Source: Escherichia coli
GTDB lineage: Bacteria > Pseudomonadota > Gammaproteobacteria > Enterobacterales > Enterobacteriaceae
Assembly: GCF_003334815.1 (NCBI RefSeq)
Contig: NZ_QOWO01000143.1
Length of the DNA: 213 nt
Strand: one strand, 5' to 3'
The first letter of the stretch is position 1. Each line of letters starts with the position of its first letter. The translations under genes were made by a program, and so were the position numbers. Below, piece by piece: positions 1 through 213 of the stretch. The notes beneath the pieces were generated by a model that saw nothing but the letters and a program-made list of their open reading frames with translations, did not search any database and was not told where the DNA came from.

Positions 1-76
1 CTCTCATATAGCCACACTTGTAGACCGAAAATCACGTTATACGATCATCCTTAGACTCAGGGGCAAAGATTCTGTC
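1..76 (+). mobile_element. IS30 internal fragment (IS30 family), truncated by the window at its 5' side and interrupted at 76/77 by another IS
   Basis: Plus-strand frame 2 (codons from position 2) translates to SHIATLVDRKSRYTIILRLRGKDSV, which matches from memory an internal segment of E. coli IS30 transposase InsI (roughly residues 239-263 of about 383). The match stops abruptly at position 76. Confidence 0.85.
2..76 (+). pseudogene. insI: IS30 transposase InsI, interrupted internal CDS fragment (25 codons); the in-frame TGA at 77-79 is supplied by the terminus of the adjacent IS
   Basis: 25 consecutive codons identical to the recalled InsI sequence (...ATLVDRKSRYTIILRLRGKDSV). The native protein continues SVNQALTDKF..., but here the frame reads V-stop followed by unrelated sequence. 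No start codon or N-terminal region is in the window. Confidence 0.8.
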
Positions 77-101
77 TGAACCGCCCCGGGTTTCCTGGAG
101 A
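77..101 (-). repeat. Terminal inverted repeat (IRR) of the IS3-family element, about 25 bp; outer terminus at position 77
   Basis: Sequence TGAACCGCCCCGGGTTTCCTGGAGA directly abuts the point where IS30 homology ends. IS3-family IRs begin with 5'-TG. The inner boundary (about 101) is approximate because the partner IR is not in the window. Confidence 0.7.
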
Positions 102-118
102 GTGTTTTATCTGTGAAC

Positions 119-213
119 TCAGGCTGCCAGATCATTGTTTCCGATGGAAGCATAATAAGCTTTTTCTGCTTCTGCCGGAGGAGTATGGCCCAGCCTTTCC
201 AGCAATCGTCGAT
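119..213 (-). CDS. IS3 family transposase OrfB (integrase-core/rve type), C-terminal 31 codons plus stop; 5'-partial because the gene continues past the window end
   Basis: Minus-strand translation gives ...(N)RRLLERLGHTPPAEAEKAYYASIGNNDLAA with stop TGA at 119-121 (reverse complement). The LG-x-x-P-x-E-x-E motif near the C-terminus is characteristic of IS3-family OrfB proteins, and the tail matches the recalled IS629/IS1203 OrfB C-terminus. Confidence 0.85.
   Translation of the reverse strand, partial: RRLLERLGHTPPAEAEKAYYASIGNNDLAA

Follow-up and report, generated by a model that had tools for sequence, protein, structure and literature searches.

Assignment of a 137-nucleotide segment of Escherichia coli DNA to the right end of an IS629-lineage element inserted in IS30

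Results

Features of the analyzed DNA

The window, i.e. the whole 213-nt stretch of Escherichia coli DNA that was analyzed, holds parts of two insertion sequences meeting at position 77. The following features were located (positions are those of the window).

1..77, plus strand: fragment of the IS30 transposase gene, IS30 nt 794-870, identical at 77/77 positions to an intact 1221-bp IS30 (locus L003)
77..79, plus strand: in-frame TGA of the IS629 terminus, ending the IS30 transposase frame after residue 269
77..213, minus strand: right-hand 137 nt assigned to an IS629-lineage element (IS3 family, IS51 subgroup) by identity to complete copies; its transposase genes run from right to left in the window
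77..101: right terminal inverted repeat (IRR) of 25 nt, TGAACCGCCCCGGGTTTCCTGGAGA, starting with the IS3-family terminal TG
102..118: noncoding spacer of 17 nt separating the IRR from the OrfB stop codon, read from the sequence
119..121, minus strand: stop codon TGA of OrfB/OrfAB, from translation
122..211, minus strand: last 30 codons of orfB, OrfB residues 267-296, RRLLERLGHTPPAEAEKAYYASIGNNDLAA, from translation
136 (codon 134-136), minus strand: variant base T, codon AAT, Asn292; C (GAT, Asp292) in most lineage members
198, minus strand: variant base T, codon GAA, Glu271; C (GGA, Gly271) in IS1203-named copies
212-213, minus strand: part of the preceding Asn codon, upstream of the 30 orfB codons

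The minus-strand frame is open from the window edge to the TGA at 119-121, and positions 119-211 translate to RRLLERLGHTPPAEAEKAYYASIGNNDLAA followed by the stop. All 30 residues are identical to residues 267-296 of the 296-aa OrfB encoded by the E. coli 720632 copy of the element (L003). The IRR is identical to the right repeat in nine of ten reference copies, and the spacer and the stop position are identical in the Shigella copies; the stop is found at the same position in the 042, 720632, Shigella, and IS1203 copies compared. The window thus contains a 25-nt repeat starting with 5′-TG at 77-101 (right repeat only) and an OrfB C terminus with its stop 17 nt inside this repeat, both as in IS629. 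The IRR is the putative binding and cleavage site of the OrfAB transposase.

An initial annotation, made from the window alone, had described a 25-bp terminus, an OrfB stop 17 bp inside it, an OrfB tail preceded by WYNN and ending in -DLAA, and an undamaged right end. The terminus was recovered at 77-101, and 25-nt ends are annotated as IS629 by the depositor in phage CP-1639. The gap between the repeat end at 101 and the stop codon at 119-121 spans positions 102-118 and is indeed 17 nt long. VDWYNN precedes RRLL in the full-length OrfB of an exact-match copy, and the identity of all 137 nt to intact copies agrees with a complete, undamaged right end. The tail sequence was correct as well, the residue left as a dash being Asn, which is Asp in most copies. 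The annotation had refrained from judging intactness beyond the window, aptly so because the window reaches no further than 137 nt into the element.

Scanning the window for further signals revealed a terminator-like hairpin inside the IRR, at positions 86-108 of the plus strand: CCGGGTTTCCTGG with a T-rich stretch after it. It is a consensus match only, faces inward from the IS30 side, and occurs once versus 0.2 sites expected in shuffled sequences. An Rfam scan of the window at E ≤ 1 gave no match, and no sigma-70-like promoter was found in a promoter scan of the window.

Database matches of positions 77-213

Megablast analysis of positions 77-213 against 5426 complete E. coli genomes yielded 6238 records in 4091 genomes, the best with 100% identity over 137 nt (E = 1e-64). 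The annotated features beneath the sampled matches were all IS3-family transposases or fragments thereof. In PLSDB, 2679 plasmids mostly from Escherichia, Shigella, and Salmonella were matched, again with IS3-family features. Exact 137-nt matches were found in 18 E. coli records and seven PLSDB plasmids, among them plasmid pAA of EAEC 042.

Identity of 137/137 was observed with the complete 1310-bp copies of E. coli 720632 (NZ_CP025842; L003:3001-4310) and of EAEC 042 plasmid pAA (NC_017627; L010:2501-3810). It was 136/137 with the copies of Shigella sonnei pSS_046, Shigella flexneri pCP301 (gene named 'IS629 ORF2'), O55:H7 pO55, and E2348/69, and 135/137 with the copies named IS1203 by PGAP and the copy of phage CP-1639, named IS629 by its depositor. 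The OrfB tail shares 30/30 residues with the 042 and 720632 copies, 29/30 with the Shigella copies, and 28/30 with the IS1203 copies.

By ISfinder convention, isoforms of an insertion sequence share at least 95% nucleotide identity. Over the 137 nt visible, this degree of identity was reached with IS629 including its isoforms (136/137 with pCP301, 135/137 with CP-1639, 135/137 with IS1203), and all lineage members compared were at least 95% identical to one another. The initial annotation had proposed the IS629/IS1203 lineage, and the database matches bear this out: the best matches were all IS629-lineage IS3-family elements, and no other IS family was matched. From sequence comparison, positions 77-213 can be placed in the IS629 lineage with very high confidence.

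Complete relatives and protein family

IS629 is a 1.31-kb element of the IS3 family, IS51 subgroup (PMC10758439). The E. coli 720632 copy (L003:3001-4310) comprises 1310 bp with a 108-aa orfA and a 296-aa orfB; according to the PGAP annotation, orfA and orfB are joined via a programmed frameshift in the exact-match copies. Its 25-nt terminal inverted repeats are complementary at 22/25 positions, in line with the pairing of the repeat arms at 22-25 of 25 positions among complete lineage copies, and the 3-bp direct repeat ATA flanks the copy. Matsutani and Ohtsubo reportedly described IS629 from Shigella sonnei in 1990.

The full-length OrfB of L003 scored 313 bits with the NCBIfam model NF033516 (IS3 family transposase, cut-off 160), and Pfam domains were assigned to residues 48-104 (HTH_21), 127-223 (rve, 3e-25), and 218-278 (rve_3). 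The tail visible in the window (residues 267-296) forms the extreme C terminus past the rve core and overlaps the last ~12 residues of rve_3/rve_2. When searched alone against NCBIfam, the 30-aa tail gave no match; family membership is therefore shown via the full-length relatives. Accordingly, the similarity to rve-domain proteins suggested as a check on the minus-strand translation was found for the full-length relative (rve, NF033516) but not for the tail by itself.

The window shows 137 of the 1310 nt and stops short of the catalytic core, the frameshift site, the left end, and the target duplication. The segment might be a remnant, i.e. a right-end IS629 fragment generated by deletion or further insertion rather than part of a complete transposable copy. 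Such fragments exist: in E. coli O157:H7 TR01, a right-end fragment of 259 nt bears the annotation 'integrase core domain-containing protein' (partial), a label found in 3 of 40 matches of a spread sample, and the missing IS30 remainder past the element in EC12 indicates that rearrangements occur at such sites. Nevertheless, a remnant is unlikely, as the 137 nt are free of defects and identical to intact copies, the window has no sign of truncation, and most of the sampled matches lie within full-length annotated transposase genes.

Junction with IS30

The left flank (1-77) is assigned to IS30 by nucleotide identity (77/77) and by its transposase frame: the frame-2 peptide corresponds to IS30 transposase residues 245-269, SHIATLVDRKSRYTIILRLRGKDSV, and this 25-aa peptide gave a weak match to the IS30 model NF033563. 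Native IS30 goes on with TCTGTCTCAGTAAATCAG, and the IS30 sequence from nt 870 reads TCAGTAAATCAGGC. Since T77 is also the base at IS30 nt 870, it can be assigned to either element; the junction coordinate given in the initial annotation was correct within this 1-base ambiguity. T77 was placed in the IS629 end because the IS629 terminus needs TG, and the likeliest reading of the junction is IS30 through nt 869 followed by the IS629 end. A 3-bp target duplication, GTC, is predicted at the IS30 site. Of the 383 residues of the IS30 protein, only the first 269 precede the in-frame TGA of IS629, and this IS30 copy is therefore presumably inactive.

A 31-nt junction sequence across 76/77, GGCAAAGATTCTGTCTGAACCGCCCCGGGTT, was absent from the GTDB representative genomes and from IMG/VR, and a 24-nt junction pattern was absent from the JGI metagenomes. 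Whole-window megablast gave no one-piece full-length match in the 5426 E. coli genomes, PLSDB, or phage records. Shigella chromosomes and draft assemblies, outside the collections searched for the junction, are the likely source of the window. The junction nearest to that of the window was found on a plasmid, 12 nt further along IS30.

This pattern of results leaves room for a junction that did not arise by simple insertion, e.g. by a deletion adjacent to the IS629 end, possibly IEE-promoted, or by an assembly join of two repeats. IEE-associated deletions beside IS629 have been described (bioRxiv 10.1101/2023.06.07.543989), distal IS30 sequence is missing at the EC12 locus, and neither the 5426 complete E. 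coli genomes nor the PLSDB, phage, genome, viral, and metagenome collections contained the exact junction. Such an origin appears rather improbable, given that clean insertions with 3-bp duplications account for three of the four comparable IS30::IS629 junctions, that the IS terminus meets its flank with base precision as predicted for transposition, and that Shigella chromosomes and draft genomes are left out of the searched collections.

An 18-nt junction pattern, TTCTGTCTGAACCGCCCC (window positions 70-87), matched 43 loci (L014-L056), none of which was the junction. Some 20 of these loci lie in rpoC genes from unrelated phyla, a few are ends of distant IS51-group relatives whose flank agrees by chance, and the remainder are unrelated. 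The motif GRFRQN of RpoC is universally conserved, and the reverse strand of TTCTGTCTGAACCGCCCC is one spelling of it, a coincidence that is misleading for short-pattern searches. Five distinct environmental elements (L016/L030, L017/L034, L033, L038, L044) have IS629-like ends of the form TGAACCGCCCCGG...CC.GGAG, and L033 shares 67% identity with the orfA end of IS629 over 371 nt. The 7-nt outside flank TTCTGTC is common to the window and all five environmental elements. This is probably due to ascertainment from a very large database; a flank preference may also lie behind it.

Other IS629-lineage insertions in IS30

IS30 and the IS629-lineage element were mapped onto four other loci with nested elements (L001:2209-4741, L002:2208-4573, L007:1254-3741, and L008:1208-3453), which derive from unrelated strains and have the same orientation.

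pLHM10-1: IS30 nt 881, simple insertion with 3-bp duplication
EC12: IS30 nt 936, distal IS30 part missing
E2348/69: IS30 nt 1072, simple insertion with 3-bp duplication
O157: IS30 nt 1118, simple insertion with 3-bp duplication

Together with the window, at least five distinct insertion points of IS629-lineage elements in IS30 (nt 870, 881, 936, 1072, and 1118) were obtained from unrelated strains, the element variants being 95-97% identical; the nt 870 site was absent from every searched collection. Further spacing classes of IS30/IS629 pairs were present in the E. coli match list of the whole-window megablast. The common orientation at the four loci comes partly from the search, which joined pieces on one strand, and no target preference is concluded from it. 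That the 3′ half of IS30 is a preferred landing site of the IS629 lineage seems doubtful; if true, it would suggest that IS629 selects its targets or that IS-in-IS insertions are strongly tolerated, rather than neutral scatter.

Naming and sub-type

Element names used here were taken from depositors and from PGAP annotation, not from ISfinder reference sequences. The genes of S. flexneri pCP301 were named 'IS629 ORF1/ORF2' by the depositor, and both 25-nt ends in phage CP-1639 are annotated as 'insertion sequence:IS629'; the O111, O157, and EC12 copies are labeled 'IS3-like element IS1203 family transposase' by PGAP. IS1203 and IS3411 are isoforms of IS629, and three IS629 sub-types that differ by 4-5% have been distinguished: I (IS1203-like), II (Shigella-like, O55:H7), and III (O26-like) (PMC3271280).

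Only 2 of the 137 positions (136 and 198) are variable among the main reference copies. T198 (Glu271) is common to S. sonnei pSS_046, S. flexneri pCP301, O55:H7 pO55, and E2348/69, and C198 (Gly271) occurs in all four sub-type I-like copies (three named IS1203 by PGAP, and CP-1639). At this single site the window has T198/Glu271 and thus lacks the sub-type I allele C198/Gly271. T136 (Asn292) is a rare nonsynonymous minority allele that the divergent pLHM10-1 variant carries as well.

Over the full 1310 nt, the copies with an exact 137-nt match differ by 21-27 nt from the Shigella/pO55 copies and by 38-42 nt from the IS1203 copies. In terms of identity, these full-length carriers share 98.0-98.4% with Shigella-type IS629 and about 97% with IS1203. 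In a neighbor-joining tree of the full 1310 nt, the two exact-match copies join the Shigella/pO55 (sub-type II) clade. With a Shigella-type T198 and full-length relatives near the Shigella/pO55 clade, IS629 is the better label than IS1203, and of the two names in the initial annotation only the former is favored. The element of the window is thus probably IS629 proper (Shigella/EAEC-042-like allele) rather than IS1203, an assignment that is based on two variable bases only and has to be read with the caveat that IS copies recombine.

The converse assignment, an IS1203 isoform (Rump sub-type I, the dominant O157:H7/O111 type) and not IS629 proper, would agree with the 135/137 identity and identical IRR of IS1203-named copies, and as lineage members are at least 95% identical, the two names differ at the isoform level only. 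It is nonetheless improbable: all four sub-type I-like copies have C198 versus T198 in the window, and the full-length copies with the exact 137 nt are closer to the Shigella-type (21-27 nt) than to IS1203 (38-42 nt). In the spread sample of matches, moreover, every IS1203-labeled record had at least two mismatches, and the records with 99.3-100% identity carried a generic IS3 label. Membership in a different IS family or a chance similarity, for which no supporting point was found, is ruled out for practical purposes by the 100% identity over 137 nt (E = 1e-64), by the IS3-family transposase annotation of all annotated matches, and by the score of the full-length OrfB with IS481, only a weak secondary match (84 bits versus a cut-off of 224).

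Discussion

Positions 77-213 almost certainly represent the complete right end of an IS629-lineage element that interrupts IS30 at nt 869/870. By analogy with characterized IS3-family elements and IS629, orfA and orfB would together give rise to the OrfAB transposase by a -1 programmed frameshift. OrfAB would bind both terminal repeats and cut at the terminal TG...CA, the element would be copied out as a circle, and the circle would then be integrated at a new target, where 3 bp are duplicated. Formation of OrfAB via a -1 frameshift and copy-out-paste-in transposition have been described for IS629/IS1203v (bioRxiv 10.1101/2023.06.07.543989). In such a scheme, one cis-acting end out of two would lie in the window, together with the terminal part of the transposase gene. 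An intact simple insertion would end with ...TCTCCAGGA(T/A)TTCCGGGGCGGTTCA at 1310 bp, followed by GTC and IS30 from nt 870 onward.

In Shigella and pathogenic E. coli, few insertion sequences are as abundant or as well studied as IS629, whose ends, genes, and isoforms are already on record. An IS629 right end in IS30 is an ordinary, already described mobile element with nothing novel about it. The practical value of the assignment lies in a clean annotation: the right end of IS629, in its Shigella/EAEC-042-like allele, inserted at nt 870 of IS30. The specific IS30/IS629 junction could be used as a strain marker if the source is identified.

Among known elements, the copies of EAEC 042 pAA and E. 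coli 720632 are identical to the window over all 137 nt and are complete at 1310 bp with orfA, orfB, and a programmed frameshift; they differ in their insertion sites, which are other than IS30 nt 870. IS629 of pSS_046, pCP301, and pO55 (Rump sub-type II) shares the right repeat, the spacer, the stop position, and Glu271 with the window, amounting to 136/137 nt and 29/30 residues, but has C136/Asp292 instead of T136/Asn292. IS1203/IS1203v of E. coli O111:H- and O157:H7 (Rump sub-type I) has the same architecture and right repeat and is identical at 135/137 nt; unlike the window, it has C198 (Gly271) and C136 (Asp292).

The pLHM10-1 variant (L002:3089-4398), present on many IncF plasmids, shares ~95% identity with the other members of the lineage, and its right repeat is altered (CCCCGATTTTCC). 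Being widespread on plasmids and at the edge of the isoform threshold, it may deserve its own name. The IS30::IS629 nests of E2348/69, O157:H7, EC12, and pLHM10-1 resemble the window in that both elements are present and oriented alike, the right repeat of the IS3-family element lying against the 5′ part of IS30. They differ from it in the insertion point (IS30 nt 881, 936, 1072, or 1118 versus 870) and in carrying element variants that are 95-97% identical.
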